This document shows, piece by piece, positions 3,431 through 33,645 of a stretch of DNA of 34,445 nucleotides. Every line of letters begins with the position of its first letter. The stretch's first letter is position 1. Made by a program: the position numbers and the translations under genes. The notes under the pieces were generated by a model. That model saw nothing but the letters and a program-made list of their open reading frames with translations. It ran no database searches and was not told the origin of the DNA. The stretch comes from an uncultured Candidatus Saccharibacteria bacterium (lineage in GTDB: Bacteria; Patescibacteriota; Minisyncoccia; Phycocordibacterales; Phycocordibacteraceae), in the NCBI GenBank assembly GCA_964565655.1, contig CAZMFT010000003.1:9061-43505 (forward strand). The letters run 5' to 3'.

Positions 3431-4207
3431 ATGGCGTGGAAATCTAAGACGTTCGACCCCTCCTCCTCCGAGCCCTTTACGATAAGTCGTTCGAAGATAG
3501 ACCTCTTCTCCGAGTGCAAGCGCTGCTCGTATCTCGACCTTCGCCTCGGGGTGAAGCGCCCGTCAGGACCTTCCTTCACGCTCAATAACGCGGTCGATGA
3601 GCTCTTCAAGAACGAGTTCGATGCGCACCGAGCTGCAGGATCGTCGCACCCATTGATGAAGCAGTACGGGATAGACGCCGTGCCGCTCAAAGACGATCGC
3701 CTCACGGAATGGCGCGACGCGCTGAAGCGCGGCGTAAAGACGCATCACGAGGAGACGAACCTTATCGTGCGCGGCGGCATAGACGATGTGTGGGTTGCGC
3801 CTTCGGGAGAGCTCATCGTCGTCGACTATAAGGCGACCTCGAAGAAGGAGGCGCCGACGACCGAAGATGACCTCTATCCGTCCTACAAGAAGCAGATAGA
3901 GGTGTACCAGTGGCTCTTCCGCCGGAACGGCTTCAAGGTCTCGCCGACCGGCTATTTCGTCTACGCGAACGGCCGTTCTGATAAGGAAGCGTTCGATGCG
4001 AAGCTCGAATTCGACATCAATCTGGTGCCGTACACGGGCGACGACGCATGGATAGAGCCGACCCTGCACGAGCTTAAGGCAACCATGATGTCGGATGAGA
4101 TACCGGAAGTAGGTACGGCGTTCGGCGGCGGCCCCTGCGATTTCTGCACGTACCGAGAAGCGGCCGGCAAGATCCTCCTTTCCATCCATAAGGCGAGGAA
4201 GAAATGA
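3431..4207 (+). CDS. PD-(D/E)XK nuclease family protein (Cas4/RecB-like fold) with CxxC...CxxC
   Basis: GGIDDVWV...ELIVVDYKATSKK (D ... D-x-K core). Cys pairs CKRC near the N-terminus and CDFC near the C-terminus. TAGAAT box at 3419-3424 lies 6 nt before the ATG. Confidence 0.7.
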   Translation: MAWKSKTFDPSSSEPFTISRSKIDLFSECKRCSYLDLRLGVKRPSGPSFTLNNAVDELFKNEFDAHRAAGSSHPLMKQYGIDAVPLKDDRLTEWRDALKRGVKTHHEETNLIVRGGIDDVWVAPSGELIVVDYKATSKKEAPTTEDDLYPSYKKQIEVYQWLFRRNGFKVSPTGYFVYANGRSDKEAFDAKLEFDINLVPYTGDDAWIEPTLHELKATMMSDEIPEVGTAFGGGPCDFCTYREAAGKILLSIHKARKK

Positions 4208-4690: not shown

Positions 4691-4776
4691 GGGAACCTCC
4701 TGTCCTGTTCTTTTTCGACCCTAGCACGGCTCAGGCAAGAGCGTCCACAAAAAGCGGCTTGGTATACTCGAGTACA

Positions 4777-6209: not shown

Positions 6210-8180
6210 TTACCAGATTTTTGCGCGCGCGGCAGGGGAGCGATAGAGCTTGTCGCCCTTGGTGACCGCGAACGCGCGGTAGAACTCCTCCATATTGGAA
6301 GCAGGCCCGTTGATGCGGAATTTCCCTGGCGAGTGCGGGTCGTTTATGACCTGCATCTTCTGGAACTCGGGTCGCGATTTCTCGCGTTCGAATAAGGAGA
6401 ATCCGAGGAAAAATCGCTGTTCCGGCGAGAATCCGCCCGCATCCGCAGCGTCACCGGTGCGGTCTCGATACAACTTCCACGCGTCATACGCAATAGACGC
6501 GCCACCGAGGTCTGCGATGTTCTCGCCGAGAGTTAGTCTTCCGTTAACGTGAACGCCGTCTGCAACCGTGTACTCATTGAACTGTTTAACAACGACGTTT
6601 GCGCGCATCTCAAAGCGCTTACGGTCGGCCGGTGTCCACCAACTCTTTAGGTTGCCCTTCTCGTCGAACTTCGAGCCCTGATCATCGAATCCGTGCGTTA
6701 TCTCGTGTCCGATGACGGAACCTATTGAGCCGTAGTTGACCGCCATATCGCCCCTCGGATCAAAGAACGGCGGCTGAAGGATGGCGGCGGGGAAGACGAT
6801 GTCGTTTAAATTCGGTGCAAAGTACGCGTTCACCGTCTGCGGATACATGAACCATTCGCCGCGGTCTATAGGACCAGCAAGCTTTCTCACCTGACGCCTG
6901 TGTTCCTGTTCGCCAGCGCGCATCAGATTCCCGACGAGATCGTCCGGGCGAATAACAAGCCCCTTGTATGACTTCCATTTGTCCGGGTATCCGATCTTCC
7001 GGTTCATCGCGCTAAGCTTTTTCAAAGCTTTCGCCTTTGTAGCAGGTCCCATCCAATCAATACCCTTGATACGCGCAGCGTATGCAGTAAAAAGGTCATC
7101 GACCAAGGCATTCATCTTCTTTTTAGCTTCGGGAGTGAAATAGCGAGAGACGTACACCTTCCCGAGGAGTTCGCCCAGGTTCCCATTGACCGCGGAGAGC
7201 GCACGACGCCAGACGGGCTTCATCACCTTAGTCCCGGTAAGCGCCGTTCCGTAAAACGAGAAGGACGTGCGGACGAACGCTGGAGTAAGTATTCCGGCCA
7301 TATCGTTTACGAGCTGCCACTCGAGATATACCTTCCAGTCATTCAAACTGACTCTGCGGAGCATCCCAGACACTCCCTTGAGGAAATTTGGCTGCATCAC
7401 GATCACGGAGAGAGGCGCGGGAATGGCATTCAGTCGCCAATACCGCTTCCAGTCGAACCCGGCAAGGAGCGCAGAGAGTTCCTTCGCGCTTTTCTTGTGA
7501 TACGTCTTGTCTGCGTCTCGCGCGGAAACCTTATCCATGGAGTGACGTGCAAGCTCAGTCTCGACCCGCATGACGACGGCTTCGCGTCTCGTAGCCTCAT
7601 ATCTGTCATATCCAACGAGCCTGTGTATTGCGACGATGTACGGCCGGTACGCATTCCGGACGCGCTTCGATTCCGTGTCTTCGTTAAGGTAGTACTCGCG
7701 GTCAGGCATCCCAAGTCCGTCCTGCACGATATGGAGCCGGTACTTCGCGCTGTCCTTTGCGTCTTGGTCGATCATGACGCTCCATGGCGCTGTTATGCCG
7801 ATACGGTGAAGCTTACCGATGACCTTCTCTAAGTCTTCGCGATCCTTGATGCCGCGCACGAGCGTGAGCCATGGCTCTATCGGCTTCGTACCGAGCTTCG
7901 CTCGGGTTTTGAGGTCAGCGGCAGAGCGATAGAGGTCGAGAACCATCTGCTCAGGGGTGCCCGGTGCCGGGCGCTTTCCACGTGAGAGGTCGTCGACGAT
8001 GCGCCGTAGTTTCTTTTCCGTATCCAATCGAAGCTGCATAAACGTGCCCCACCGGCTTTCCGCTTTTGGTATAGAAGTTCTAGCGAGCCAGCCACCTCCG
8101 GCATACTCATAAAAATCATCTCCCGGACGTACCTTGGAGTTCATGTCGCGGGGTCGTATGACGGAGCGTGTGGATGCCAT
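6210..8180 (-). CDS. pepO: M13-family zinc metallopeptidase (PepO/neprilysin-like)
   Basis: HEITHGFD (HExxH) and ENIADLGG motifs, 656 aa. Minus-strand TATACT (complement of 8187-8192) lies 6 nt before the start. Confidence 0.9.
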   Translation of the reverse strand: MASTRSVIRPRDMNSKVRPGDDFYEYAGGGWLARTSIPKAESRWGTFMQLRLDTEKKLRRIVDDLSRGKRPAPGTPEQMVLDLYRSAADLKTRAKLGTKPIEPWLTLVRGIKDREDLEKVIGKLHRIGITAPWSVMIDQDAKDSAKYRLHIVQDGLGMPDREYYLNEDTESKRVRNAYRPYIVAIHRLVGYDRYEATRREAVVMRVETELARHSMDKVSARDADKTYHKKSAKELSALLAGFDWKRYWRLNAIPAPLSVIVMQPNFLKGVSGMLRRVSLNDWKVYLEWQLVNDMAGILTPAFVRTSFSFYGTALTGTKVMKPVWRRALSAVNGNLGELLGKVYVSRYFTPEAKKKMNALVDDLFTAYAARIKGIDWMGPATKAKALKKLSAMNRKIGYPDKWKSYKGLVIRPDDLVGNLMRAGEQEHRRQVRKLAGPIDRGEWFMYPQTVNAYFAPNLNDIVFPAAILQPPFFDPRGDMAVNYGSIGSVIGHEITHGFDDQGSKFDEKGNLKSWWTPADRKRFEMRANVVVKQFNEYTVADGVHVNGRLTLGENIADLGGASIAYDAWKLYRDRTGDAADAGGFSPEQRFFLGFSLFEREKSRPEFQKMQVINDPHSPGKFRINGPASNMEEFYRAFAVTKGDKLYRSPAARAKIW

Positions 8181-8244
8181 GCGGGCAGTATAGGCGCTAA
8201 GCGCGCTTCGCGCGATATCGGGCGTATGCTATCGTCGCTTCTAT

Positions 8245-10170
8245 ATGCAGGTAGGTGAGATCCGGAAGCGATACCTCGATTTCTACAAGGCGCGCGGCCA
8301 CGCGGTCATCCCGTCAGCACCCATCGTGCCGGGGAATGACCCGACGACCCTCTTCACCTCCTCGGGCATGCAGCCCTTGGTGCCGTACCTTCTCGGGAAG
8401 GATCATCCGGAAGGCAAGCGCGTCACGAACTCGCAGAAGTCATTTCGTGCAGGCGATATAGAAGAGGTCGGTGACAACCGGCACACGACCTTCTTCGAGA
8501 TGCTCGGGAACTGGTCCTTGGGCGACTATTTCAAGCAGGAACAGCTTCCTTGGGTATTCGATTTCCTTACGAACGAGGTCGGACTCGATCCGAGGAATCT
8601 CTACGTCACCGTCTTCGATGGGGATGCGGACACCGGGATGGAGCTTGATACCGAGGCAGTCGCCATATGGCAGCGCCTCTATAAGGAGAGCGGTATCGAC
8701 GCCGAGCTGGTGCGCATCGGTACGGAAGAGGAAGGGTACGACAAAGGTATGCGAGGCGGACGCATCTTCTCCTATGGGCCGAAGAAGAACTGGTGGAGCC
8801 GCGCCGGAGTGCCAGCGAATATGCCGGCAGGAGAGCCGGGAGGCCCTGACTCGGAGATCTTCTACGACTTCGGCACGCCGCATGACAGTAGGTGGGGTAA
8901 GGAATGCCACGTGAATTGCGACTGTGGGCGGTTCGTGGAGATAGCAAACTCCGTCTTCATGCAGTACGTGAAGAATGCGGACGGATCTTTCTCGAATCTC
9001 CCCAAGCAGAACGTCGACTTCGGTGGCGGCCTCGAGCGTGTCGCTATCGCCGCTATCGGGAAGCCAGACGTGTTCCTTCTCGATGTCTTCGACCATGCGA
9101 GGAAGACGTTGGAGGAGCGTACGGGGAAGGCATACCTCGCTGACGAGGCATCGACCCGCTCGTTCCGCATCATCATGGATCACGTACGTGCCGCAGCATT
9201 CATGCTCGCCGAAGGCGTGACGCCGTCGAACACCGAGGCCGGGTACGTGCTACGCCGCCTCATCCGTCGCGCCATACGCGAGGTTGACCGTCTTGGCATA
9301 AAGGACGCAGTCCTCGCAGATATCGCACAAGGCTTCGGTAAGGCGTACGAAGACCATTACCCGGAAGTATCCGCTAAAGCGAATGAAATCGCTGACGGTT
9401 TAGCGAAGGAGGAAGCGCAGTTTCGCAATACGCTCGAGCGAGGACTTAAGGAGTTCGAGAAATATGCTTCCGCACTTTCGGCCTCGGCGACTGGTTCAAT
9501 ATCAGCTAAGGAAGCTTTTACCTTGTTCACGACATACGGTTTTCCTTTGGAACTTACACTGGAACTAGCGCAGGAGCGCGGCATGAATGTAGATAGTGCC
9601 GCCTTCAAGTCATTGATGACCGAGCATCAAGCAGCGTCTCGGGCAGGTGCAGCGCAGAAATTCGCCGGCGGACTCGCAGATCATAGCGAGCAGACGGTCC
9701 GCTACCATACGACCCATCACATACTCCTTAAGGCGCTTCAGATGGTGCTTGGCGAGGAAGTTAAACAGCGCGGCTCGAACATCACCGCAGAGCGCCTTCG
9801 CATCGATTTCGCCTCACCTGGGAAGATGACTGACGAGCAAAGGGCAGAGGTAGAGAAGATCGTGAACGAGGTCATCTATCAGGATCTCCCGGTCACGCGC
9901 ACGGTGATGCCGCGCACGGAAGCAGAGAAGCTGGGCGCGCAGATGGAGTTCGGCGTTAAATACCCGGATAGCGTGTCTGTCTACTCGGTCGGGCCGATAG
10001 ATGCGACCGAGGCTGATCCCAAGATCCTCTCCGCGTTCTCATTGGAGTTCTGCGGAGGTCCGCACGTCACCAATACCGCTCAAATTCACGAAGGCAGCAG
10101 AAAATTCCGCATACAGAAGGAAGAGGCGGTCGCTCAAGGCGTACGCCGCATCAAGGCGGTACTCGAATAG
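8245..10170 (+). CDS. alaS: alanine--tRNA ligase, short form (641 aa)
   Basis: Class II catalytic core (FTSSGMQPLVPY...), tRNA-recognition region, and editing-domain motifs HTTHHILLKAL (HxxxH) and CGGPHV (CxxxH). The protein ends right after the editing domain. Confidence 0.9.
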   Translation: MQVGEIRKRYLDFYKARGHAVIPSAPIVPGNDPTTLFTSSGMQPLVPYLLGKDHPEGKRVTNSQKSFRAGDIEEVGDNRHTTFFEMLGNWSLGDYFKQEQLPWVFDFLTNEVGLDPRNLYVTVFDGDADTGMELDTEAVAIWQRLYKESGIDAELVRIGTEEEGYDKGMRGGRIFSYGPKKNWWSRAGVPANMPAGEPGGPDSEIFYDFGTPHDSRWGKECHVNCDCGRFVEIANSVFMQYVKNADGSFSNLPKQNVDFGGGLERVAIAAIGKPDVFLLDVFDHARKTLEERTGKAYLADEASTRSFRIIMDHVRAAAFMLAEGVTPSNTEAGYVLRRLIRRAIREVDRLGIKDAVLADIAQGFGKAYEDHYPEVSAKANEIADGLAKEEAQFRNTLERGLKEFEKYASALSASATGSISAKEAFTLFTTYGFPLELTLELAQERGMNVDSAAFKSLMTEHQAASRAGAAQKFAGGLADHSEQTVRYHTTHHILLKALQMVLGEEVKQRGSNITAERLRIDFASPGKMTDEQRAEVEKIVNEVIYQDLPVTRTVMPRTEAEKLGAQMEFGVKYPDSVSVYSVGPIDATEADPKILSAFSLEFCGGPHVTNTAQIHEGSRKFRIQKEEAVAQGVRRIKAVLE

Positions 10171-10226: not shown

Positions 10227-10484
10227 ATGTCGGATTCGATTGACCGTGTGAGCGACGCTATGCGCCAGCTTCAGCCCGATCACGAGTTCTGGATCGATGC
10301 CGTACTCGACATTACGAACGGACCCTATATCGAGGCTCGGTATCGGAATCCGGAGCTCGCCGGCATATGGGTCTTCCTTTACGCCATTACGCGTGGCTGC
10401 GCGGAATACATGGTAGACAATGGCTACGTGTATTTCTGCGCGGATGACGTGTTCCGTTCGACCTACAAGTTCGACTCACAGTGA
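10227..10484 (+). CDS. hypothetical protein (85 aa)
   Basis: ATG 10227 preceded by GGGGAG (10217-10222). The ORF-track GTG 10188 has no such signal. Followed by a terminator. Confidence 0.5.
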   Translation: MSDSIDRVSDAMRQLQPDHEFWIDAVLDITNGPYIEARYRNPELAGIWVFLYAITRGCAEYMVDNGYVYFCADDVFRSTYKFDSQ

Positions 10485-10488
10485 TGAC

Positions 10489-10518
10489 GAGGCGCGGAAT
10501 TATCCGCGCCTTTTCGTT
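10489..10518 (+). terminator. intrinsic terminator
   Basis: GGCGCGGA (10491-10498) ATTA TCCGCGCC (10503-10510), then TTTTCGTTT. Confidence 0.75.
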
Positions 10519-10530
10519 TATACTGACGGG

Positions 10531-11643
10531 ATGTGGTTCTTGAGACGCAAACGCGTTGATTCCGTCCTCCTGCTCGATATCGGGTCGGGTTCGGTCGGCG
10601 CCGCCTACCTCACCCTCGCAGAAGGAACGAAACCGACCCTGCATTACGGCGTCCGCGTAAGGCACAAGGAAGGAACGGATGTCGGAACGACCATGAAGGA
10701 GGCTATACGCTCGCTAGTCTCTCATGGCTCCGCGATGCTCCGGGACGCGTCCGGTACCGGACGCGCGGACGCGGCGCTTGTCGCGGTCGCCTCTCCCTGG
10801 CAGCACACGCATGTCGAGAAGCGCGCGAAAGAGGCTGCGGAGCCCTTCGCGGTCTCAAGCGGGCTTGTCCGCGACCTCGTATCGGCCGAGGAGAAGCTTC
10901 TCGAGGGACACGTCCACGCAGATACCGCGATAATCGCGACCCTCCTTAATGGGTACGAGGTCAAAGAGCCTCACGGTAAGCGTGTAAAGCGCCTCGAGGC
11001 CGTCGTCATGAACTCATCGATTGATGAGGCGCTTAAGAAGTCGGCAGAAGACGCGCTCAAAGGCGAAGCGCATATCAGGAACGTGACCTTCGCATCATTC
11101 CCCTGGGTTTCGTACGCTTCATTGTCGGCCTTGTATCCGCATGAACGTGATTACCTCGTCATGGACGCTGCTGCGCTCGCAACCGACATCACCGTCGTTG
11201 CTCAAGGCCGTATCGCGCGCGTCGCCTCTTGTGGCGCGGGGGTGAGAGCGCTTGCGAAGAAATCATCTCCCGCGGGCGAGGAGAAGGTAGAAGGCGGCAT
11301 CCATGTCCGCCGAGACACGAGCGAGGCGAAAGCAGCCCCCGGAGGAAAGAGTGCGTGGCTTACGAGCACGGTCAGAGCCCTCAAGGATCTATCGGAACAC
11401 CAAGCCTTGCCGCGCATGCTCTTCCTGCTTGCGGATGATACCTACGCGAGCGATGTGAAGGCGATGCTCACCGACGAGAGCGTCCGCTCCCTCTGGCTCT
11501 CTGACGACCCGCTTTCGATAATCACCGTGACCCCTGCGCAGCTCCAAGCCGCTATCGTGCCGGTGGGCGAGGGGACCGATGATATCTTCCTCATGCTCGT
11601 GGCCTACCATGCGGCGCGTGCCTATACCCAAGGAAAAGATTGA
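10531..11643 (+). CDS. actin-like ATPase-fold protein (divergent FtsA/PilM-like), function uncertain
   Basis: LLLDIGSGSVGAAY (phosphate-1-like) and later YLVMDAAALATDITVV (degenerate second nucleotide motif). Start moved to ATG 10531, because the ORF-track start 10420 runs through the upstream terminator. TATACT box at 10519-10524. Confidence 0.5.
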   Translation: MWFLRRKRVDSVLLLDIGSGSVGAAYLTLAEGTKPTLHYGVRVRHKEGTDVGTTMKEAIRSLVSHGSAMLRDASGTGRADAALVAVASPWQHTHVEKRAKEAAEPFAVSSGLVRDLVSAEEKLLEGHVHADTAIIATLLNGYEVKEPHGKRVKRLEAVVMNSSIDEALKKSAEDALKGEAHIRNVTFASFPWVSYASLSALYPHERDYLVMDAAALATDITVVAQGRIARVASCGAGVRALAKKSSPAGEEKVEGGIHVRRDTSEAKAAPGGKSAWLTSTVRALKDLSEHQALPRMLFLLADDTYASDVKAMLTDESVRSLWLSDDPLSIITVTPAQLQAAIVPVGEGTDDIFLMLVAYHAARAYTQGKD

Positions 11644-11693: not shown

Positions 11694-12983
11694 ATGCCAA
11701 CACCTCGTACCGTAAATGACATCATCCCGCCCTCGCGCCGACGCCGGACCGTGGAGGATACGCCTGTTGCGCCCGAGGTTCCGCCTACGATTGATGACAT
11801 TCATGTCGAGCCACCTATGACCCCGACTAACCCTCCCCCTATGCGTCCTTTGCCGCCGATGAGCCCGCCGCCGCGCCGCCGCTTCCCGTGGGGCACGGCG
11901 ATAATCGCGCTCGTCGTCGTTCTCGCATCCCTCGGCGCCCTATGGCTCTTTTCCGGCGCGTCGGTCTCCATAACGCCAGCAACGGCTTCCGGCAGCGTGA
12001 ACCAGGAGTTCACCGCAAACCCTGATAGCGGCGATCTTCCGTTCCGCGTCGTCTCGACCGAGAAGATTGCCTCGAAAAGCGTCCCGGCAGAATCCACGGT
12101 GAACGCGAACGATGCTGCGGAAGGCACCATCACGGTCTACAACACGTCCTCATCGCCGCAGCGCTTCGTGAAGAACACGCGATTCGAGTCGCCGAGCGGT
12201 CTCATCTTCCGCGCCCGCGACGCGATAAACGTCCCTGCCGGAAGTGCCACCTCGCCTGGCACGACGAAAGTCTCCGTATTCGCAGAGACCGGGGGCGAGC
12301 AGTACAACATCGCTGCTACCGATTTCAGCCTCCCGGGCCTCGATGGCACACCAGAAGCGAAGCTCGTCTACGGAAAGTCGACCGAGGCATTCGTCGGCGG
12401 CTTCCTCGGAAATCGCCCATCGGTATCGGAAGCGACCGCAACCCGTGAGCGCGCAATCCTTCAGGCAGAGCTCCCGGCCGCAGTCCTCGACGGACTTCGC
12501 GAGGCGACGCCGGAGGGCTACGTCATCGTCCCAGGCTCGGAGAACGTCCTCTACTCTCCGCTTCCGGACGCGCCGGACGGCTCAGGCGGCGTCTATGTAC
12601 GCCACAAGGCGTCCGCGACTGCCGCAATCTTCCCAGCTGACGCGCTCGCACGCGCCGTAGCCCAGGTCGTCATCGGCCAGGGGTATGCCGGACAGCCGGT
12701 GAAGCTCGCGAACGTAGACCAGCTCCGCGTGACGCCGAAGGCGCCCGTATCCGCGACTGACCCATTCGAATTCACGCTGTCGGGCACCGGCTCCGTCGTC
12801 TGGGAGGTAGACCCTACGAAGATCGCGGGTTCGGTCGCAGGGAAGACCCGGGAGGCAGCCCGCGTCCTCATCTCCGGCCTTCCGGAGGTCGGAACGGGCA
12901 CGATAACCCTCCGTCCGTTCTGGTCAGGCACGCTTCCGGAGGACCCGGAGGAGATAGAGGTCACCGTAAAGGCGGCTGAATAA
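11694..12983 (+). CDS. proline-rich, single-pass membrane protein with large extracytoplasmic domain (429 aa)
   Basis: N-terminal PPMTPTNPPPMRPLPPMSPPP, then TM helix AIIALVVVLASLGALWLF, then about 340 aa of soluble domain. No family recognised. Confidence 0.65.
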   Translation: MPTPRTVNDIIPPSRRRRTVEDTPVAPEVPPTIDDIHVEPPMTPTNPPPMRPLPPMSPPPRRRFPWGTAIIALVVVLASLGALWLFSGASVSITPATASGSVNQEFTANPDSGDLPFRVVSTEKIASKSVPAESTVNANDAAEGTITVYNTSSSPQRFVKNTRFESPSGLIFRARDAINVPAGSATSPGTTKVSVFAETGGEQYNIAATDFSLPGLDGTPEAKLVYGKSTEAFVGGFLGNRPSVSEATATRERAILQAELPAAVLDGLREATPEGYVIVPGSENVLYSPLPDAPDGSGGVYVRHKASATAAIFPADALARAVAQVVIGQGYAGQPVKLANVDQLRVTPKAPVSATDPFEFTLSGTGSVVWEVDPTKIAGSVAGKTREAARVLISGLPEVGTGTITLRPFWSGTLPEDPEEIEVTVKAAE

Positions 12984-17130: not shown

Positions 17131-18750
17131 ATGGCGAATGCCTTGCAGGTAAGGGCAATTAAAAACGTAGTCGACCAGTACTCTGCGCAGTACGGTCTTT
17201 TGCCGCACAAGGCCTTTTTATACCTAGTAATCGAACGTTATCTTGCTGAGCTGGAGCTGAATAGCATCGACATTGAAGAGGCAATCGTGGACGGTGGTGA
17301 TGATTGTGGCATCGACGCAATCGTCATATCTGATGACGAAGAAGGTAGGCCAAAAATTTATTTCTTTCAGTCGAAGTATTCACCGAAGGAAGATGCATTC
17401 GAAAGGAATTTCGAAGGTGATGCGCTCGATAAAATTCAGAGTGCGGTAAATGATTTTGTACTCAAGGGACGAATTAATGCCAAATATCAGAACGCTCGGC
17501 TGGTTGACCGACTGCAGTCAGTAAAGAATCTTTTACAACGGAATCCTGAATTTGAAATAGTGTTGTGCTCCAACACATTGCCGCCTGCTATTGCAGCAAA
17601 GACTAGGCTGGAGGAATTCGTGTCGGACGCAAATGACAGTGTCAAAAGCGAGCATTTGCATGTGCGATATTTGAACGTCGAAGAAGTCGCGCAGGATCTT
17701 ATCGCGCCAGAACAGGAAACAAGAATTGATCTAAATCTACAGATTTCTGGTAAGTATCTGACTGAAGACACGGGGAATGTGCGCCTCTTCGTTGGCGCAG
17801 TAAACGCAGCCAGAATATCAGAGCTAGTCGAAGAGCATGGAAATGGGCTTTTTGAGAGAAATGTCAGAGGTTACCTTGGTCCACAAAAGTTGAATCAGAG
17901 CATATACGAAACGGCGACTTCACAAATAAGTCCTTATTTCGTGTACATGAATAACGGAATAACCATTACGTGTGAAAAGTTTAGTCATGCACCGATTGCA
18001 GATTCGCCGACGCTCGAAATTGCGAATGCTCAAGTAGTAAACGGTCAGCAAACAGCACGTTCGCTCCATCGCGCGTTCAAAGAAGGCAAACTCAAGCCTG
18101 ACACAAAAGTTCTAGTGAGACTTGTCGAAACATCAGATCGAGATCTTCTTATGAAGATTGTTGATTCTACGAACAGTCAGACGAAGGTTACCTCACGCGA
18201 CCTTAGATCTAACGACGAAACTCAGCGGCTGATAGAGAAGAGTCTTGAAAGCTTGGGTTATTTCTACGAGGCGCGCAAAGGTAAATACAAGGGCAAGGAT
18301 TTAGAAAAGCGCGTAGATGCAGAAATCGCAGCCCAAGCGTACTACGCGATATTTAAGGAGCAACCAGCGCTTGCAAAAGATAAAAAGAAATATCTTTTTG
18401 GCGACAGGTATGATGATGTATTCGATTCCAGTCTAGAACCTGCAAATCTTCTGTATGCATACAAGCTTCTTCGCTGTATCCAGAGACTGAATGGTAGCGC
18501 CGATTCTGAAAAGTATAGCTTCCTGAAAGATGCGGCGTTGCACACTGCAGCCCTAATTCACAGAATAGGTGGACGAAATGTGACCGACGGCGAGCTTCCT
18601 AAGGAGTACACGGTGGTTATCGACTCGCTTCTGAAACTTGTTAGGGAGAGACAGAAAAAGGAAGGGGATAAGTATGAGCATAGAAGGACGTTTAAGGATC
18701 CTGAGACGTACGGTAGGGCAGTTCAAATTCTTGAGAACGCTAAATCATAA
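17131..18750 (+). CDS. AIPR-family abortive-infection (phage resistance) protein
   Basis: N-terminal nuclease-like GGDDCGIDAIVI...IYFFQSKYS. C-terminal AIPR-type motifs ERNVRGYLG, MNNGITITC, VVNGQQTARSL. Visibly AT-richer than its neighbours. TAATAT box at 17119-17124 lies 6 nt before the ATG. Confidence 0.8.
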   Translation: MANALQVRAIKNVVDQYSAQYGLLPHKAFLYLVIERYLAELELNSIDIEEAIVDGGDDCGIDAIVISDDEEGRPKIYFFQSKYSPKEDAFERNFEGDALDKIQSAVNDFVLKGRINAKYQNARLVDRLQSVKNLLQRNPEFEIVLCSNTLPPAIAAKTRLEEFVSDANDSVKSEHLHVRYLNVEEVAQDLIAPEQETRIDLNLQISGKYLTEDTGNVRLFVGAVNAARISELVEEHGNGLFERNVRGYLGPQKLNQSIYETATSQISPYFVYMNNGITITCEKFSHAPIADSPTLEIANAQVVNGQQTARSLHRAFKEGKLKPDTKVLVRLVETSDRDLLMKIVDSTNSQTKVTSRDLRSNDETQRLIEKSLESLGYFYEARKGKYKGKDLEKRVDAEIAAQAYYAIFKEQPALAKDKKKYLFGDRYDDVFDSSLEPANLLYAYKLLRCIQRLNGSADSEKYSFLKDAALHTAALIHRIGGRNVTDGELPKEYTVVIDSLLKLVRERQKKEGDKYEHRRTFKDPETYGRAVQILENAKS

Positions 18751-21312: not shown

Positions 21313-21329
21313 TATGTGAATGGTATAAT
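21302..21329 (+). promoter_or_regulatory. putative promoter with extended -10
   Basis: TTGTAT (21302-21307), 16 nt spacer, TGgTATAAT (21321-21329). The SD-led ORF starts at 21362. Confidence 0.45.
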
Positions 21330-26635: not shown

Positions 26636-26698
26636 AACGCACGCGTGCATCTAGAATTGCTTGCATACTTTTGACTTTCATGGTATAAACATCACATC

Positions 26699-27373
26699 AT
26701 GATTTTCGACGGGGAACTCCTGTCCGCCCTCCTCAAGACCCCTGGCTATACCGCAGCGGTGCTGCAGGTCATCGGGTATGGCCTCTATCTGCGCTACGCC
26801 TTCCGCAAGGAGATCAAGCCGAACCCGCTTACGTGGCTCATGTTCGCCTATGGCACGACCCTCCTATTCTGGCTCGAGTTCGATCGGGATGCGTCGTGGC
26901 TCATCCTTTTCCTGCCGATGGCGTGCGCAGCATCGAGCCTCGTCGTCGTGGCGCTCTGCTATCTTCGGGGCGGATACGAGAAGAAGATAGACCCTGTAGA
27001 CAAGCTCATGTTCGCGTTCGACCTTGTCCTTACCGCGCTCTATCTCGCGGTCTGGGGACTCCTCGCGTACGGATACATAGACGAAGCAGCGAAGGACTCG
27101 GCGAATTTCATTATCATCGTCGCCTGGGTATTCGGCATCGGAACCGCCTTCACGCCGATGGCGCGCGAGGTGCGCAGCAAGCCCTCGAGCGAGCACCCGC
27201 TGCCATGGATCATCTGGTCGTGCGCATACGCGATGCTTATCGCCGCGACACTCATCGATGAGGGTGTCAGCGTCTTCCTCCTCTATCCGATCGTCGCGCT
27301 TATCTTCCACGCGCTTATCGCGAAACTCTCCTACGGCGGCCTACGCGACGAATTGAAGGCTGCCGGCCTCTAG
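26699..27373 (+). CDS. polytopic membrane protein (224 aa, about 6-7 TM)
   Basis: Hydrophobic helices throughout. Promoter TTGCAT (26661-26666), 17 nt spacer, TGgTATAAA (26681-26689). Confidence 0.65.
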   Translation: MIFDGELLSALLKTPGYTAAVLQVIGYGLYLRYAFRKEIKPNPLTWLMFAYGTTLLFWLEFDRDASWLILFLPMACAASSLVVVALCYLRGGYEKKIDPVDKLMFAFDLVLTALYLAVWGLLAYGYIDEAAKDSANFIIIVAWVFGIGTAFTPMAREVRSKPSSEHPLPWIIWSCAYAMLIAATLIDEGVSVFLLYPIVALIFHALIAKLSYGGLRDELKAAGL

Positions 27374-27418
27374 GAAGGCAAATGTGGTATAATCAGGGTA
27401 CCTAGGCGCTACGGGAAC

Positions 27419-27919
27419 ATGAAAGCGATAAAGGTAGGGAAGAGCACGATAGAGGGCAACGGCATATTCGCCGCGGAGCCGATTCGTCGTGGCGACCGTA
27501 TCCAATACATCGCAGGGAAGATAGTGAAGAAGCTACCGAAGACCAAAGAAGAGGCGCTTTCCATACCTAACTGGTTCGGCTTGAGCCGTCAGAACTGGAT
27601 CGATCCGGAGGGCACACCGTTCCGATTCCTCAACCATTCCTGCGAACCGAACGCGGCAATCGCGGGCCGGAAGATCCTCACGGCGCTCCGCGACATAAGC
27701 GAGGACGAAGAGATAACCATCGACTATTCCATCACGGATGCGGACACTTTGTGGGAGATGCCGTGCCTCTGCAAAGCGAAGACCTGCCGCAAGACCATAC
27801 GCTCTATACAGTCCGTCCCGACGGATGTCTTCAATCGACACATGCCGTATATCCCCAGGTATTTCCAACGTCTCTATATTCGCAATTACATCAAGGGCAG
27901 GCTAAAATCGGGAATATGA
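27419..27919 (+). CDS. SET-domain protein (putative lysine methyltransferase) with post-SET Cys cluster
   Basis: GNGIFAAEPIRRGDRI, RFLNHSCEPNA, EEITIDYS, CLCKAKTCRK. Extended -10 TGgTATAAT at 27385-27393. Confidence 0.8.
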   Translation: MKAIKVGKSTIEGNGIFAAEPIRRGDRIQYIAGKIVKKLPKTKEEALSIPNWFGLSRQNWIDPEGTPFRFLNHSCEPNAAIAGRKILTALRDISEDEEITIDYSITDADTLWEMPCLCKAKTCRKTIRSIQSVPTDVFNRHMPYIPRYFQRLYIRNYIKGRLKSGI

Positions 27920-28101
27920 AGGATACGGGGCCGGTGCTAACGCCCTCCGCGAAGATCTTCTTCGTGGTCTTCTTCGGTCTCATCGCGGTATCGATCGCGA
28001 ACGCGTATTACCACGTAGAAGTATTGAAGGACTACAACGTATATACGGAGGAGGACGATATTCCGCGCGCCGTGGATTTCTATCTCGAGCTCATTCCTTG
28101 A
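27916..28101 (+). CDS. small single-TM protein (61 aa)
   Basis: ATG 27916 overlaps the SET stop (ATGA). TM helix IFFVVFFGLIAVSIANAYY. Ends 3 nt before the kinase ATG. Confidence 0.45.
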   Translation: MKDTGPVLTPSAKIFFVVFFGLIAVSIANAYYHVEVLKDYNVYTEEDDIPRAVDFYLELIP

Positions 28102-28104
28102 CCT

Positions 28105-29766
28105 ATGGAACTCTACGGATGCGAATGGAACGCGGCCTGGCTCCTCATCTTCTCCGATAACGTCGGGCCCTTCATCTATTACTCCCACCTCGCGCCGATG
28201 ATCGCGTCGCTCATACTCGGTACCGTCGTCCTTCTCAATAACCGCCGCGGGCTCACGAACTGGGCCCTGTTCATGGTCACGCTCGCCTTCGCAGCCTACT
28301 GCTACATCGACCTCATCCTCTGGGCATCGCCAAGCCCGGAGCACGTCATCTTCTTCTGGCAGATGATCGTTCCGATAGAGCTCCTCATCTATGCGAGCTC
28401 GCTCTATCTCGTATACCTCTTCGCGAACGGACAGAAAGATATCTCGCTCGGCCGCAAGATAGCGATCGCAGCGCTTTTCATACCGATACTTGCGCTCCTC
28501 CACACCCAGTACACCGTCTCCGGCCTCTCTCCTGACTGCGACGAGGGCGCTATCGAGGGCCCGGTCATCCAGTACCTGTATTTCGCAGAAATGTTCATGA
28601 TCCTCTGGGCGGCGGTCGTCGCGGCAAGCGGCTATCAGAAGCTGAAAGATGTCCGCGAGCGCCGGCAGCTCCTCTTCATCAGCTTCGGCGTCATCTTCTT
28701 CCTCATCGCGTTCTCCGCCGGGAACGTCATCCTGATGCTTTCGCTGGAGACCATCTACGACCAGTACAAGCTGTTCGGCATGCCAGTGTTCCTCGCCTTC
28801 CTCACGTACAGCATCGTGAAGTTCCGTGCATTCAACGCCAAGATACTGCTCGCGCAGGCGCTCGTGATCGCACTCGCCATCCTCACGATCTCGATACTCT
28901 TCCTGCGCACTATCGAGAACGTCCAGATAGTCACCGTCGCGACCTTCATCCTGGTGTGTATCCTCGGATTCATCCTGATTCGTAACGTCAGGCGCGAGGT
29001 CGATCTGCGCCAGCAGACGCAGAAGCTCGCCCAGGAACTCGCGGAGACGAATCAGCGCCAGGAGAGCCTCATCCACTTCGTCGGTCACGAGGTCAAGGGC
29101 TTCTTGACTAAGGATATCGCCGTATTCGCGGCGCTCGTCGAAGGCGACCTCGGACAGCTTCCAGACAGTATGAAGCCGTTCGTCGAGAACGCCCTATCGC
29201 AAAGCCGTGACGGCGCCACGTCCGTTATCGACATACTCCATGCGTCGAATCAGAAGAAGGGGACCGTCGAATACCATAAGCAACCGTTCGATTTCGCTGC
29301 GCTTGTAAAGAAATGGGCGGAGAAACTGAAGCCTGTCGCAGAGAAGAAGGGTCTCACGCTCTCCCTTACCATCGACGAGACGGCGGGCTCCTACACACTC
29401 ATCGGCGACGAATCGCAAACCGGCGACCATGTGTTGCGGAACCTCATCGAGAATGCCATCAACTACACGCCCACGGGCAGCATCTCACTCTCGCTCGCGA
29501 AGAAGGGCCCGTTCGCGGTCTTTACGGTCGCGGATACGGGCGTCGGCATATCCACCGAGGATAGGCGTCGCCTCTTCACTGAAGGCGGGCACGGCAAGGA
29601 CTCGTTGAAGATAAACGCGCATTCCACCGGCTACGGTCTCTTCATAGCGAAAAACATCATTGAAGCCGAGGGTGGCACCGTTCGCGCAGAGTCAGAAGGT
29701 CCGGGCAAGGGTTCGCAGTTCATCGTGGCCTTGCCGCTCGATGCCGACCATCATGCTGCGCGTTAA
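28105..29766 (+). CDS. sensor histidine kinase with N-terminal multi-TM (HisKA_7TM-like) sensor region
   Basis: About 8 TM helices. H-box HFVGHEVKG, N-box LRNLIENAINYT, G1 DTGVGI, G2 GYGLFIAKN. Confidence 0.9.
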   Translation: MELYGCEWNAAWLLIFSDNVGPFIYYSHLAPMIASLILGTVVLLNNRRGLTNWALFMVTLAFAAYCYIDLILWASPSPEHVIFFWQMIVPIELLIYASSLYLVYLFANGQKDISLGRKIAIAALFIPILALLHTQYTVSGLSPDCDEGAIEGPVIQYLYFAEMFMILWAAVVAASGYQKLKDVRERRQLLFISFGVIFFLIAFSAGNVILMLSLETIYDQYKLFGMPVFLAFLTYSIVKFRAFNAKILLAQALVIALAILTISILFLRTIENVQIVTVATFILVCILGFILIRNVRREVDLRQQTQKLAQELAETNQRQESLIHFVGHEVKGFLTKDIAVFAALVEGDLGQLPDSMKPFVENALSQSRDGATSVIDILHASNQKKGTVEYHKQPFDFAALVKKWAEKLKPVAEKKGLTLSLTIDETAGSYTLIGDESQTGDHVLRNLIENAINYTPTGSISLSLAKKGPFAVFTVADTGVGISTEDRRRLFTEGGHGKDSLKINAHSTGYGLFIAKNIIEAEGGTVRAESEGPGKGSQFIVALPLDADHHAAR

Positions 29767-30202
29767 GAACACCATTCGATCGAGCCCGATACACGGTATC
29801 GGCCTCTTCGCCGCAGAGGATATTCCGAAAGACACGGTCATCTGGCAATTCGACCCTCGCATGGACCAGATACTCAACCCATCTGTATTTCCCAGCCTTC
29901 CTGAAGCAGCCCAGAGCCTCTTGGTACGGCATGCGTATCGAAGCAAGCGCACGGGGAATTACATCCTTGATTTCGATAACGGACGTTTCTTCAACCATTC
30001 CGATACGCCTAATACCTATACGAAGGTCGTGGACGGCGTTCCAGAGGATGTCATATTCTCAAATTGCGACATCAAGGAAGGACAGGAGCTCACGCTCGAT
30101 TACAGCCTCCAGGAAGACGAGCTCGGCGAGGAGAACGCGATCGTCGCCATGGGCGAGAAGCTTGGCATCGAGGATGACATCGATCCGCGAATCAAGCAGT
30201 AG
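29741..30202 (+). CDS. SET-domain protein (second copy, no post-SET Cys)
   Basis: IHGIGLFAAEDIPKDTVI, RFFNHSDTPNT, GQELTLDYS. ATG 29741 (or 29753) overlaps the kinase 3' end (stop at 29764-29766). The ORF-track TTG 29660 is unlikely. Confidence 0.75.
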   Translation: MPTIMLRVKNTIRSSPIHGIGLFAAEDIPKDTVIWQFDPRMDQILNPSVFPSLPEAAQSLLVRHAYRSKRTGNYILDFDNGRFFNHSDTPNTYTKVVDGVPEDVIFSNCDIKEGQELTLDYSLQEDELGEENAIVAMGEKLGIEDDIDPRIKQ

Positions 30203-30220
30203 GCCTGGTATAGTTTTCTC

Positions 30221-31474
30221 ATGAACCTGGCAGAAGAGCTCAAGGTGCGCGGGCTTGCGGAGCACACCAGCGCGAACCTCGGGGAGATACTCTCGGAGCC
30301 ACGCACTGCATATCTGGGGATGGACCCGACCGCGGACTCGCTTCATGTCGGTCACTTGGTGCCGATACTCCTTATGCGCCGACTGGGCGCTGCGGGCCAT
30401 AAGCTTATATTCCTCGTCGGGGGCGGTACCGGGATGATCGGCGACCCTCGCGACTCTGGCGAACGGACGCTCCTCGATGAGCGCACTTTGGCGGCGAATA
30501 CCCGCGCGCTGAATCGACAGCTGAAAGTCCTGTTGGGCCGGCTTTCGTTCCGCATGGTGGATAACAACGACTGGCTCTCGCGCGTGAAGCTCATCCCTTT
30601 TTTGCGCGACATCGGCAAGCACTTCACGGTGAATGAGCTCACGAAGCGAGACCTCATCAAGCGTAGGCTCGAAGACCCCAATGACAGCATCTCCTACACG
30701 GAATTCACGTATTCCTTGCTACAGGGATACGACTACCTCTACCTTAACGAAAAGTACGGCACGGACCTTCAAGTGGGCGGGTCCGACCAGTGGACCAATA
30801 TGCTTTCGGGCGTCGAATTGATCCGTCGGAAAGCGGGGAAGGAGGCGTTCGTCATCACGGCACCTATCATCACGGATTCCTCTGGCAAGAAATTTGGCAA
30901 ATCAGAAGGTAACGCCGTCTGGCTCGACCCTAAAAAGACCTCGCGCTTCAAGTTCTACCAATTCTGGCTCAATCTTCCGGACGATAACCTCGAGCGCTAT
31001 TTCCACGCATACACTATGCTCCCGGTAGGGGACGTCGAGGCACTCCTTATCCGCCATCGCGCGGCCCCGCATGCGCGCGAGGCGCAGGAGACCCTTGCGC
31101 GGCTCGTCACCGAGCTTGTGCACGGCCCCGCCGCAGTCGCAAACGCTGCAGCCGCAACCGACGCCCTCTTCGGCACCCAGCCGTTTGCCAAGCTATCACG
31201 CGAGGAGCGCGCGGTCGTGCTTGCAGAGGCGCCATCTGCGACTATTTCCGCCAAAGAAGCCGCCGCTGGGTACCCGCTCGTCGATGCGCTTGTCGCCGGA
31301 GGTCTTGCTGCATCAAAGTCCGATGCCCGTCGCCTTATCGAGGGTCGCGGCATCACGCTCAATGATTTCCAGGTAAAAGAAGCCGACCAGCGCATCCATC
31401 AGGGCGACCTTCCGGGCGGCTTCGGGTTAGTGCGCAAGGGAAAGCGCGACGTCCTCGTTCTCGTGTTGAAATAA
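30221..31474 (+). CDS. tyrS: tyrosine--tRNA ligase
   Basis: HIGH-type HVGHL, KMSKS-type KFGKS, and a C-terminal S4-like domain. TGgTATAGT at 30206-30214 lies 6 nt before the ATG. Confidence 0.95.
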   Translation: MNLAEELKVRGLAEHTSANLGEILSEPRTAYLGMDPTADSLHVGHLVPILLMRRLGAAGHKLIFLVGGGTGMIGDPRDSGERTLLDERTLAANTRALNRQLKVLLGRLSFRMVDNNDWLSRVKLIPFLRDIGKHFTVNELTKRDLIKRRLEDPNDSISYTEFTYSLLQGYDYLYLNEKYGTDLQVGGSDQWTNMLSGVELIRRKAGKEAFVITAPIITDSSGKKFGKSEGNAVWLDPKKTSRFKFYQFWLNLPDDNLERYFHAYTMLPVGDVEALLIRHRAAPHAREAQETLARLVTELVHGPAAVANAAAATDALFGTQPFAKLSREERAVVLAEAPSATISAKEAAAGYPLVDALVAGGLAASKSDARRLIEGRGITLNDFQVKEADQRIHQGDLPGGFGLVRKGKRDVLVLVLK

Positions 31475-31502
31475 GGCCTTAATCCGCTATAATCCGCATG
31501 AC

Positions 31503-31585
31503 GCGTCGGTGGTAGAGTGGTCAATTACAACAGGCTGTAAACCTGTCGGCTTCGGCCTACGGAGGTTCGAATCCTCCCCGGCGCA
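31503..31585 (+). tRNA. tRNA-Tyr (anticodon GTA at 31537-31539), class II long variable arm, CCA not encoded
   Basis: Hand fold: acceptor GCGTCGG/CCGGCGC (one U:G pair), D stem GTAG/TTAC, anticodon stem ACAGG/CCTGT with loop CTGTAAA, variable arm with a GGC-TTCG-GCC hairpin, T arm GGAGG-TTCGAAT-CCTCC. TATAAT at 31488-31493. Confidence 0.85.
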
Positions 31586-31590
31586 CAAAC

Positions 31591-32706: not shown

Positions 32707-33645
32707 ATGGCAAAACCCAGGCTCCTTACCGGCATACAATCGTCCGGCCAGCTCCATATCGGCAACTATTTCGGCGCTCTGAAGCCGTTCGCGGACATAT
32801 ACCGCGAATACGACAGCTTCCTCATGGTCGCGGACTACCACTCGCTGACATCGCTCCGAGATCCTGAAGCCGTCCGCCGCAACAGCCTCGAGGTGGTGAA
32901 GGATTACATCGCTGCAGGCGTCGACCCGGAAGAAGCCGTCATCTTCAAGCAGTCGGACGTATCGGAGCACACGGAACTCGCATGGATATTCGACTGCCTC
33001 GTCACTGTGCCGTTTTTGATGCAGGCGCACTCCTACAAGGACAAGGTGGCGAAGGGACTTGAGGCGAACGCCGGACTCTTTGCGTACCCGATGCTTATGG
33101 CTGCGGACATCCTTCTTTATGACGCGGTCGCAGTGCCTGTCGGCGAGGACCAGCGCCAGCACATCGAATACGCGCGCGAGGCTGCGTCGAAATTCAATAA
33201 CGCATACCAGCCTTTATTTACGGAGCCCAAGGAGATGATCCTTGCGGGCGTCGGCGTCGTCCCCGGCACGGACGGGCAGAAGATGTCTAAGAGCTACGGA
33301 AACACGATCCCGCTCTTTGCGACGAGGGACGAGGTAGCGAAGGCGGTCATGGGCATCGTCACGGACTCCGCAGGCGACCGCCCCGAGAACGTGTACGCCA
33401 TACATAAGCTTCTCAAGTCCGAGGAGGAGCTCGCACCGCTTTACACAGAGTACGCTGGCAAGTACAAGGCGCTCAAAGAGACGCTTATCGAAGACCTCGA
33501 TGCGTATTTTGCCCCTATGCGCGAGAAGCGCGACAGCATCACAGATGACAACGCGCGCGAGGTACTCTCCCGCGGCGCCAAGAAGGCGAAGGTAGTAGCA
33601 GCCGCCAAGATGGAAGCGGTGCGGAAGGCTGTGGGCGTCGCTTGA
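32707..33645 (+). CDS. trpS: tryptophan--tRNA ligase
   Basis: GIQSSGQLHIGNYFGA (HIGH) and KMSKSYGN (KMSKS). TGcTAGGAT at 32692-32700 lies 6 nt before the ATG. Confidence 0.95.
   Translation: MAKPRLLTGIQSSGQLHIGNYFGALKPFADIYREYDSFLMVADYHSLTSLRDPEAVRRNSLEVVKDYIAAGVDPEEAVIFKQSDVSEHTELAWIFDCLVTVPFLMQAHSYKDKVAKGLEANAGLFAYPMLMAADILLYDAVAVPVGEDQRQHIEYAREAASKFNNAYQPLFTEPKEMILAGVGVVPGTDGQKMSKSYGNTIPLFATRDEVAKAVMGIVTDSAGDRPENVYAIHKLLKSEEELAPLYTEYAGKYKALKETLIEDLDAYFAPMREKRDSITDDNAREVLSRGAKKAKVVAAAKMEAVRKAVGVA

Follow-up and report, generated by a model that had tools for sequence, protein, structure and literature searches.

We describe here a cassette of five genes in a 34,445-nt stretch of DNA from an uncultured Candidatus Saccharibacteria bacterium (contig CAZMFT010000003.1, positions 9,061 to 43,505 of the forward strand), referred to below, at its full length, as the window. 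The cassette encodes two proteins with a SET methyltransferase domain, a membrane-embedded histidine kinase, and two further membrane proteins. An original prediction, made from the sequence alone, had assigned four of these genes to one operon in which the two SET genes bracket the kinase. The coordinates that it gave for all four open reading frames (ORFs) were exact, and a fifth gene upstream of them, termed TM224 here, had been overlooked. The five genes, with the basis of each assignment, are as follows.

26699-27373, plus strand: TM224, a 224-aa seven-helix membrane protein with a predicted SWEET/PQ-loop/KDEL-receptor-like fold (predicted fold; SET adjacency and fusion)
27419-27919, plus strand: SET1, 166 aa, with SET and post-SET regions and a conserved aromatic C-terminal tail (Pfam SET, E 3.4e-16)
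27916-28101, plus strand: a single-pass membrane protein of 61 aa (hydropathy; homologues directly 5' of the kinase)
28105-29766, plus strand: a histidine kinase of 553 aa with multiple transmembrane (TM) segments (HATPase_c, E 1.8e-19)
29753-30202, alternative start 29741, plus strand: SET2, 149 aa, without the post-SET zinc motif (Pfam SET, E 3.6e-15)

The last four genes are tightly coupled, and the junctions originally reported are all borne out. The ATG of the 61-aa ORF overlaps the SET1 stop codon as ATGA (27916-27919), 3 nt separate the stop of this small ORF from the kinase start, and both in-frame ATGs of SET2 (29741 and 29753) lie within the 3' end of the kinase gene, whose stop codon is at 29764-29766. 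The start equivalent to 29753, which gives a kinase/SET2 overlap of 14 nt, is the choice of the gene caller for SET2 in a relative that is 89% identical. Candidate promoter elements, and the gene that follows the cassette, are listed below.

26681-26689, plus strand: -10-like box TGGTATAAA, 10 nt 5' of the TM224 gene and following TTGACT at 26671 (sequence reading)
27385-27393, plus strand: extended -10-like box TGGTATAAT, the probable promoter of the SET1-small protein-kinase-SET2 genes (motif over-representation)
30206-30214, plus strand: -10-like box TGGTATAGT of the next unit, at the 3' boundary of the cassette (motif over-representation)
30221-31474, plus strand: tyrosyl-tRNA synthetase, TyrRS (Pfam scan)

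The box at 27385, from which the operon had been proposed to start, is real. TGGTATAVT occurs in four copies on the plus strand of the window (4760, 21321, 27385 and 30206) against 0.13 expected, no shuffled sequence reached four, and the box is kept as GGTATAAT at the equivalent position in the 89%-identical relative (locus L157). The window also contains two matches to TGNTATAAT, against 0.24 expected. A sigma-70 scan listed the TTGACT site and missed the 27385 box because the latter has no -35 element. Among the cassette genes, over-represented -10-like boxes are found only at 27385 and 30206, with the related TGGTATAAA preceding the TM224 gene. Since these two motif copies bracket the four genes, SET1, the small protein, the kinase and SET2 are probably expressed as one transcription unit. 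Boxes of the TGGTATAVT or TGGTATAAA type (4760-4768, 21321-21329, 26681-26689, 27385-27393 and 30206-30214, all on the plus strand) lie from a few to about 25 nt 5' of gene starts; they are probably the -10 promoter element of this organism, and transcripts from several of them would be leaderless or nearly so.

Both SET proteins exceed the Pfam gathering score for the SET domain (PF00856). SET1 contains the motifs NHSCEPN and EITIDY, followed by a post-SET C-L-C-KAKT-C, which is the CxCx4C cluster that had been recognized at the outset. Across 18 diverse members of the SET1 family N72, H73, C75, D102, Y103 and S104 are invariant, as are the zinc residues C116, C118 and C123. The catalytic motifs of this predicted enzyme are intact, and a lysine-type amine would be expected as its methyl acceptor. 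SET2, which is 30% identical to SET1, carries NHSDTPN and ELTLDY and has no C-terminal cysteines, so that it is without the post-SET cluster; the cluster has also been lost in some paralogues at other loci, for example in the second copy at L028 and in L055. An NCBIfam scan gave a very weak match (E 0.007) of SET2 to the LegAS4 model.

The PDB sequences closest to SET1 are those of KMT2A/MLL1 (9e-14) and BurB (8e-8), and a profile of the SET family finds KMT2A-D at 5e-24 and BurB at 1e-16. Like the KMT2/MLL-SET1 H3K4 methyltransferases, SET1 has an identical NHSCEPN motif, the catalytic tyrosine of the DY motif and the CxCx4C cluster. Unlike them, it is a stand-alone protein of 166 aa, or in other genomes is fused to a seven-transmembrane (7TM) protein, has no WRAD-binding or chromatin-reader regions, carries an extra conserved aromatic tail after the post-SET motif, and belongs to a bacterium without histones. 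BurB of Burkholderia thailandensis is a 172-aa bacterial SET protein that functions as a methionine S-methyltransferase on free methionine (PMC12542666), which demonstrates that a free amino acid can serve a bacterial SET enzyme as substrate. It shares with SET1 its small, stand-alone form; unlike the system described here, it is soluble and tetrameric, takes part in dimethylsulfoniopropionate synthesis, and has neither a 7TM partner nor a kinase neighbour. The substrate contacts of BurB are made through the main chain and hence are not comparable by sequence.

TM224 has no match in Pfam or NCBIfam, and seven members of its family had no Pfam match even at E<=5. Its AlphaFold2 model contains seven helices (pLDDT 89.2), and the top Foldseek matches in the PDB are a eukaryotic SWEET (5ctg), cystinosin (7zk1 and 8dkw) and the KDEL receptor (6i6j), with TMq 0.47-0.59, probability 0.98-1.0 and E 0.01-0.3. 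Two conserved motifs, PNPxTW and PxxExPxPW, are predicted to sit where TM1 and TM5 end on the cytoplasmic side. TM4 contains an Asp108 that is nearly invariant, and many aromatic and polar residues are invariant. Neither an MtN3_slv or PQ-loop profile match nor a PQ motif was found in TM224, and we describe the protein as having a predicted "SWEET/PQ-loop-like fold" of 3+1+3 helices without calling it a member of the MtN3 clan. The predicted fold is shared with SWEETs, cystinosin, PQLC2 and the KDEL receptor, and the duplicated proline motifs on the cytoplasmic side of TM1 and TM5 are reminiscent of their PQ motifs. Unlike MtN3-clan proteins, TM224 has PNPxTW and PxxExPxPW instead of PQ, and it belongs to a small family that is SET-fused or SET-adjacent; no report of SET fusion or adjacency for any MtN3-clan protein was found in the literature searched.

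The association of this family with SET enzymes is close. A word-indexed homologue search found few TM224 relatives (7, then 44), and an exhaustive hidden Markov model (HMM) search was needed to recover the family, which comprises 593 representative clusters. All ten of the long family members scanned carry a C-terminal SET domain. We also collected 54 informative metagenome loci solely by TM224 similarity, a sample biased toward relatives of the query from the Candidate Phyla Radiation (CPR). A SET gene is adjacent in 41 of these and a single long ORF is present in 7, together 48 of 54; the long ORFs that were read through, in L116, L119, L120 and L123, encode 7TM-SET fusions. The kinase is also present in 29 of the 38 loci with enough sequence. 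In the model of one fusion, P0133 (395 aa; pLDDT 89.6, pTM 0.81), the final TM helix, spanning residues 196-230, runs into the first strand of the SET domain at residue 231 with no linker; a SET domain joined in this way would therefore have a rigid attachment to the inner side of the membrane. Many bacteria with such a fusion lack the kinase. Judged by gene linkage, TM224 is the primary partner of the SET enzyme, closer to it than the kinase is, and TM224 and SET1 constitute one predicted functional unit.

The 7TM-SET pair also occurs outside the CPR. In Caulobacter segnis (L085, 3035-10702) a TM224 homologue is followed by an overlapping SET gene, and no 7TM kinase is present. The neighbours of the pair at this locus, and of the fusion at L156, the locus of P0133, include TIR, HTH, TrwB-like, Phage_AlpA and Replic_Relax genes, which suggests that outside the CPR the pair or fusion is carried on integrative or mobile elements. 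The TIR, TrwB and AlpA neighbours in Proteobacteria prompted us to consider a defence system, a reading that received no support from PADLOC or NCBIfam: PADLOC returned no match for TM224, SET1, the small protein, SET2 or P0133, and only a generic match to the HATPase region of the kinase. A candidate link to cyclic di-GMP was also dropped as unreliable. The CHASE4 match of an apparent 7TM-CHASE4 fusion (P0128, P0124) is faint and the protein looks truncated beside a transposase, and a CHASE4-GGDEF-EAL neighbour is found in two loci only.

The second part of the cassette consists of the 61-aa protein and the kinase. The kinase matches HATPase_c (PF02518; E 1.8e-19), with N446, N450, D477, G479, G481, G509 and G511 invariant, and its H-box histidine, His328 (HFVGHEVKG), is invariant in 17 homologues. 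NCBIfam histidine kinase models align to residues ~300-550. The original prediction of a multi-TM HisKA/HATPase kinase stands as to the ATPase domain, the phosphoacceptor-type H-box and the membrane region; the window protein itself has no match to Pfam HisKA or HisKA_7TM at E<=0.01, with PF00512 recorded for several homologues and PF16927 for some close ones, and hydropathy suggests about nine TM segments, against the seven of the 7TM label. The outer loops are acidic and just 4-14 residues long. Homologues number 861 among the scored candidates, and 468 stretches from GTDB species representatives encode a relative of the kinase; the named homologues are from Candidatus Kaiserbacteria and Paceibacteria (CPR/Patescibacteria).

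The kinase has almost no extracytoplasmic domain and probably needs membrane partners for its input. Intramembrane-sensing kinases of the BceS, LiaS and GraS type depend on accessory membrane proteins, and by analogy the kinase described here is probably an intramembrane-type sensor that takes its input from partner membrane proteins. It resembles BceS-BceAB, LiaS-LiaF, GraS, LysP-CadC and DctA-DcuS in its minimal, acidic outer loops and in the small membrane and transporter-like proteins that are conserved and encoded directly 5' of it. Those systems differ in having an adjacent cognate response regulator, no methyltransferase and unrelated accessory proteins, and kinases of the Bce and Lia type have two TM segments against about nine.

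The 61-aa protein has a short basic N-terminus, one hydrophobic segment (residues 5-34) and an acidic C-terminal tail. In longer homologues (L075, 8991-9389; L047, 9169-9504; L061, 8648-9151) the TM segment is followed by a C-terminal domain rich in cysteine, from which it would follow that the C-terminus is extracytoplasmic and that the window version is a minimal form. The protein is a probable accessory subunit of the kinase. Within the kinase, Cys6 (28120-28122) is nearly invariant (>=90%, that is, in at least nine tenths of homologues) and Cys145 (28537-28539) is invariant. Predictions place both residues outside the cytoplasm, Cys6 in the N-terminal tail and Cys145 in the longest of the outer loops, and a disulfide between them could shape the tiny sensor surface.

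Conservation of the SET-kinase adjacency was examined in 80 species-representative loci picked solely by kinase similarity (79 of them at 38-55% identity over the best-matching segment) and annotated by iterative HMM searches seeded from the window proteins. The 74 Patescibacteria loci, all from GTDB species representatives, with enough upstream DNA were counted, and the locus counts rest on our own ORF calls and HMM searches of these loci, which are cited by number. A SET gene lies within 1.6 kb 5' of the kinase, on the same strand, in 33 of the 74; a small-protein homologue is found directly 5' of the kinase in 47. A TM224 homologue is present in 28 of the loci. The SET-positive loci are spread over several clades of a neighbour-joining kinase tree and interleave with SET-less loci. 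The adjacency is thus conserved in other genomes and is not a peculiarity of the one in which it was first noticed.

The adjacency also recombines. It persists while flanking genes change, and two SET subfamilies and two gene orders are represented among the kinase loci. The second SET subfamily (B) has a different C-terminal tail, DWxxPELQxKYxGYF, and no 7TM partner within 10 kb. Its SET gene is placed between a long Cys-rich small protein and the kinase in L071, L075 and L078, and abuts the kinase with a 4-nt overlap in L031 and L071. This placement without a 7TM protein links the SET enzyme to the small protein-kinase pair as well as to the 7TM protein. The bracketing of the kinase by two SET genes has a narrower distribution. 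It holds here and in the 89%-identical relative, which has the same SET-61aa-kinase-SET order and a different downstream neighbour, and it is not seen at 65% identity, where SET2 is absent; by gene order, the downstream SET2 is a lineage-specific feature. Elsewhere SET2-type genes are inserted between SET1 and the small gene (L011, L029, L030 and L138) or lie on the opposite strand (L037), and SET1 genes are duplicated in L028, L047 and L076.

In a number of SET-less loci the position upstream of the kinase is filled by other enzymes. A PrmA/PRMT-like class-I methyltransferase lies directly 5' of the kinase in L040, L041, L050 (about 7000-9990) and L066 (9024-9980), and in L043 (1421-2821) such a methyltransferase is fused to the 7TM protein. 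Methyltransf_20 occupies the same position in L064, L069, L077, L080 and L084. L040, L041 and L050 encode, besides the PRMT-like enzyme, a dimethylargininase-like enzyme of the guanidino-modifying superfamily, and the two could be a "writer plus degrader" pair for methyl-arginine. Other genes that recur in this slot encode AdoMet decarboxylase, a deoxyhypusine-synthase-like protein, EamA, LPG_synthase_C, spermidine synthase and a saccharopine-dehydrogenase-like protein; the slot genes suggest a shared theme of cationic-amine and S-adenosylmethionine (SAM) chemistry. The tight coupling of the genes, the persistence of the adjacency amid changing flanks, the two subfamilies and gene orders, the non-homologous replacement of the SET gene and the repeated recruitment of SET2-type genes give, at the level of gene organization, good support for a functional module.

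The kinase has no response regulator nearby. Receiver domains were sought with Pfam in all sizeable ORFs of the window and with our own HMM built from CheY, Spo0F, PhoB and OmpR, and neither approach found one in the 34-kb window, in agreement with the original prediction. Receivers are present in 5 of the 74 kinase loci, examined out to about 10 kb in either direction, and 69 are without; the sampled loci, ~1.6 Mb in total, contain 7 receivers. In two loci a single-domain receiver gene lies just 3' of the kinase on the opposite strand (L048, 11657-12067, minus; L049, 6877-7368, minus). Nothing else in the loci hints at a cognate regulator, and we did not use these receivers to name it, as they are restricted to the two loci.

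Together, these observations lead us to a tentative account, which we prefer to the others considered below while holding it as a possibility short of even likelihood: a membrane-docked SET enzyme would place methyl groups on a lysine in the kinase/accessory complex, thereby tuning an intramembrane-type kinase whose response regulator is encoded elsewhere. The locus would then be a conserved membrane module of ultra-small bacteria of the Paceibacteria type (CPR/Patescibacteria) with two coupled halves. In the first half, TM224 would dock, and possibly gate, the KMT2-like SET1; the second would consist of the single-pass accessory protein and the kinase with its nine or so TM segments. With SAM as the donor, SET1 would methylate a lysine-type amine at the membrane surface, most likely a cytoplasmic lysine of the kinase/accessory complex, and the methyl mark would tune both autophosphorylation of the kinase and phosphotransfer to the distal response regulator. 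SET2 would be a second methyltransferase recently added to the module. The analysis shows the gene structure, the predicted folds, the intact catalytic motifs, the adjacency that is conserved and recombines, the fusions and the absence of a nearby receiver; that the proteins form a complex, which molecule accepts the methyl group and how the kinase responds are inferred.

The proposed arrangement is analogous to the CheR/MCP/CheA system of chemotaxis, in which a SAM-dependent methyltransferase is likewise tied to a membrane sensor controlling a histidine kinase. The likeness would be one of logic only, without homology. CheR has a class-I Rossmann fold and forms glutamyl methyl esters on methyl-accepting chemotaxis proteins (MCPs), whereas here the fold is that of SET and lysine-type N-methylation would be expected; unlike in chemotaxis, the kinase itself is membrane-embedded. 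Pfam scans found no CheR-family methyltransferase, MCP, CheB, CheA or CheW in the window.

Several observations weigh against methylation of the kinase complex. No SET gene lies within 1.6 kb upstream of the kinase in 41 of the 74 loci, and in about one third of the full set there is no recognizable methyltransferase 5' of the kinase. The earlier proposal of a SET-kinase functional module is upheld by the conserved adjacency and has to be qualified by these SET-less loci and by the fact that the tightest partner of the SET enzyme is TM224. As a caution, each half of the cassette can exist without the other: 7TM-SET, as pair or fusion, occurs without the kinase in C. segnis and in soil bacteria of high GC content, in part among mobile-element genes, and the substrate in those bacteria therefore cannot be this kinase. 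Within the window the TM224 gene has a probable promoter of its own (TGGTATAAA). The cassette is set in a broadly syntenic housekeeping region (DnaJ, c16, an ABC exporter, TyrRS and the tryptophanyl-tRNA synthetase TrpRS, the aspartyl-tRNA synthetase AspRS, and ScpA/B), and part of its conservation is therefore due to shared ancestry. BurB is the best structural match of the SET domain of a fused family member (30-32% identity, E 4e-8); with a KMT2-like profile and a BurB-like structure, the substrate class is therefore not deducible from similarity. Finally, no lysine is conserved specifically in the SET-linked kinases. The best candidates, K502 (0.94 in SET-linked versus 0.64 in SET-less kinases) and K118 (0.86 versus 0.50), were not used as evidence of methylation, as differences this weak could merely reflect phylogeny.

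An alternative that we regard as possible, if doubtful, is that the 7TM protein, as a carrier or receptor site of the PQ-loop/SWEET type, accommodates a cationic amine such as lysine, arginine, a polyamine or an amino-lipid head group like that of lysyl-phosphatidylglycerol, which SET1 would methylate at the cytoplasmic mouth, while the kinase and its acidic small partner would co-sense the cation or the state of the carrier. Sensing linked to a carrier has precedents in BceS, which uses BceAB, and CadC, which uses LysP. The predicted fold of TM224 is of the type found in SWEET, cystinosin and the KDEL receptor, and its membrane-embedded Asp108 and invariant aromatic and polar residues would suit such a site, as would the acidic outer loops of the kinase and the acidic tail of the small protein. 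The self-contained 7TM-SET unit of kinase-less bacteria suggests a universal substrate, the structural match just described is to an enzyme acting on a free amino acid (PMC12542666), and SET-less loci carry enzymes of amine and SAM chemistry in the position 5' of the kinase. Against these points, the profile of the SET family is nearer to KMT2A-D (5e-24) than to BurB (1e-16), with the full post-SET lysine-channel motif kept, and SETs of subfamily B lie within the small protein-kinase operon away from any 7TM partner (none within 10 kb). Transport is assumed from the predicted fold of a protein that has no Pfam MtN3/PQ-loop match, and the nearby amine and SAM genes may merely reflect lineage synteny.

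It is unlikely, in our judgement, that the cassette reflects synteny only, with the 7TM-SET and small protein-kinase pairs co-transcribed through genome compaction and the SET enzymes methylating a soluble protein, for example one of the ribosome, the translation apparatus or the nucleoid. The syntenic region extends broadly across the class, from DnaJ to ScpA/B, gene overlaps are common in small genomes, and the two pairs lie 9 kb apart in L013; the 41 SET-less kinase loci and the kinase-less 7TM-SET pairs also fit this explanation. It accounts poorly for an adjacency that outlasts changes in its flanks, and the two SET subfamilies, the two gene orders and the insertions between the small gene and the kinase would be hard to obtain by inheritance alone. 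Furthermore, three unrelated methyltransferase families share one position, SET2-type genes have repeatedly joined the cassette at differing positions, and the rigid membrane tethering predicted for the SET domain argues against a bulk soluble substrate.

Returning to methylation of the kinase complex, a more elaborate version can be imagined in which 7TM-SET is a receptor-coupled methyltransferase in the style of a one-component membrane sensor: a ligand-sensing 7TM domain of the SWEET/KDEL-receptor-like kind would gate the rigidly attached SET domain. In Paceibacteria the target would be a lysine of the neighbouring kinase complex, and methylation would be a second covalent code on a two-component kinase, serving as an adaptation or memory layer. 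We consider this version quite unlikely. If true, signalling based on a SET enzyme would be recorded in bacteria for the first time, and the system would parallel the adaptation of chemotaxis independently of CheR. That the kinase instead phosphorylates or controls SET1, SET2 or the 7TM dock, with methylation as the output of the pathway, is very improbable: the missing receiver in the window and in 69 of 74 related loci and the SET genes that flank the kinase in this lineage would fit, but neither SET protein has a receiver-like domain, histidine kinases are specific for receiver aspartates, and, as receivers do exist in the sampled loci (7 in ~1.6 Mb), a distal cognate regulator is the simpler solution.

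Most work on SET proteins of bacteria has dealt with effectors directed at a host or has treated the proteins as isolated curiosities. SET1 and SET2 are, like Chlamydia NUE, Legionella LegAS4/RomA and archaeal Go1-SET, prokaryote-encoded SET methyltransferases. The targets of those soluble or secreted enzymes are histones of the host or archaeal chromatin proteins, whereas the SET proteins described here would be membrane-tethered and kinase-linked, and show no sign of secretion. Neither a 7TM-SET architecture nor a module joining SET and kinase is described in the literature searched, whose coverage was incomplete and which included papers on Lipocone, SemiSWEET diversity and bacterial SET proteins. 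PADLOC, NCBIfam and Pfam have no model for the 7TM protein or for the cassette. The components are all of known kinds; their combination appears to be new.

The cassette provides a SET enzyme with a dedicated and conserved membrane partner, split or fused, that belongs to a small family without a Pfam or NCBIfam match. In a large class of CPR bacteria, this enzyme also forms part of the operon of a sensor kinase that is widely conserved and lacks a nearby response regulator. Should the kinase complex be what accepts the methyl group, lysine methylation would be added to the repertoire of bacterial signal transduction; if it is a transported amine or a lipid head group, the cassette would represent a new transporter-coupled methylation chemistry in organisms that rely on scavenged metabolites and lipids. 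Either way, several "hypothetical" genes, which are among the few signalling genes of these minimal genomes, acquire a testable function, and natural fusions such as P0133 offer tractable experimental handles.

The TyrRS gene downstream of the cassette (30221-31474, plus strand) is directly followed by a tRNA-Tyr (GTA) gene (31503-31586, plus strand), with a promoter-like site, TTGAAA-16-TATAAT, at 31466-31493 between the two and a TrpRS-like gene 3' of the tRNA gene (32707-33645). Two neighbouring ORFs without a Pfam match, of 407 aa (10420-11643, plus strand) and 429 aa (11694-12983, plus strand), lie between the alanyl-tRNA synthetase gene and the S13-S11-S4-RpoA block. An AIPR (abortive-infection-type) protein is encoded at 17131-18750 (plus strand), between the gene for ribosomal protein S9 and grpE-dnaK-dnaJ, in an otherwise housekeeping stretch. 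Finally, near a DUF7282 protein, a protein combining an ATP-cone with an Mrr_cat restriction-endonuclease-like domain (2068-2910, plus strand) and a PD-(D/E)XK nuclease (3431-4207, plus strand) form a pair that may be a small defence or mobile patch.

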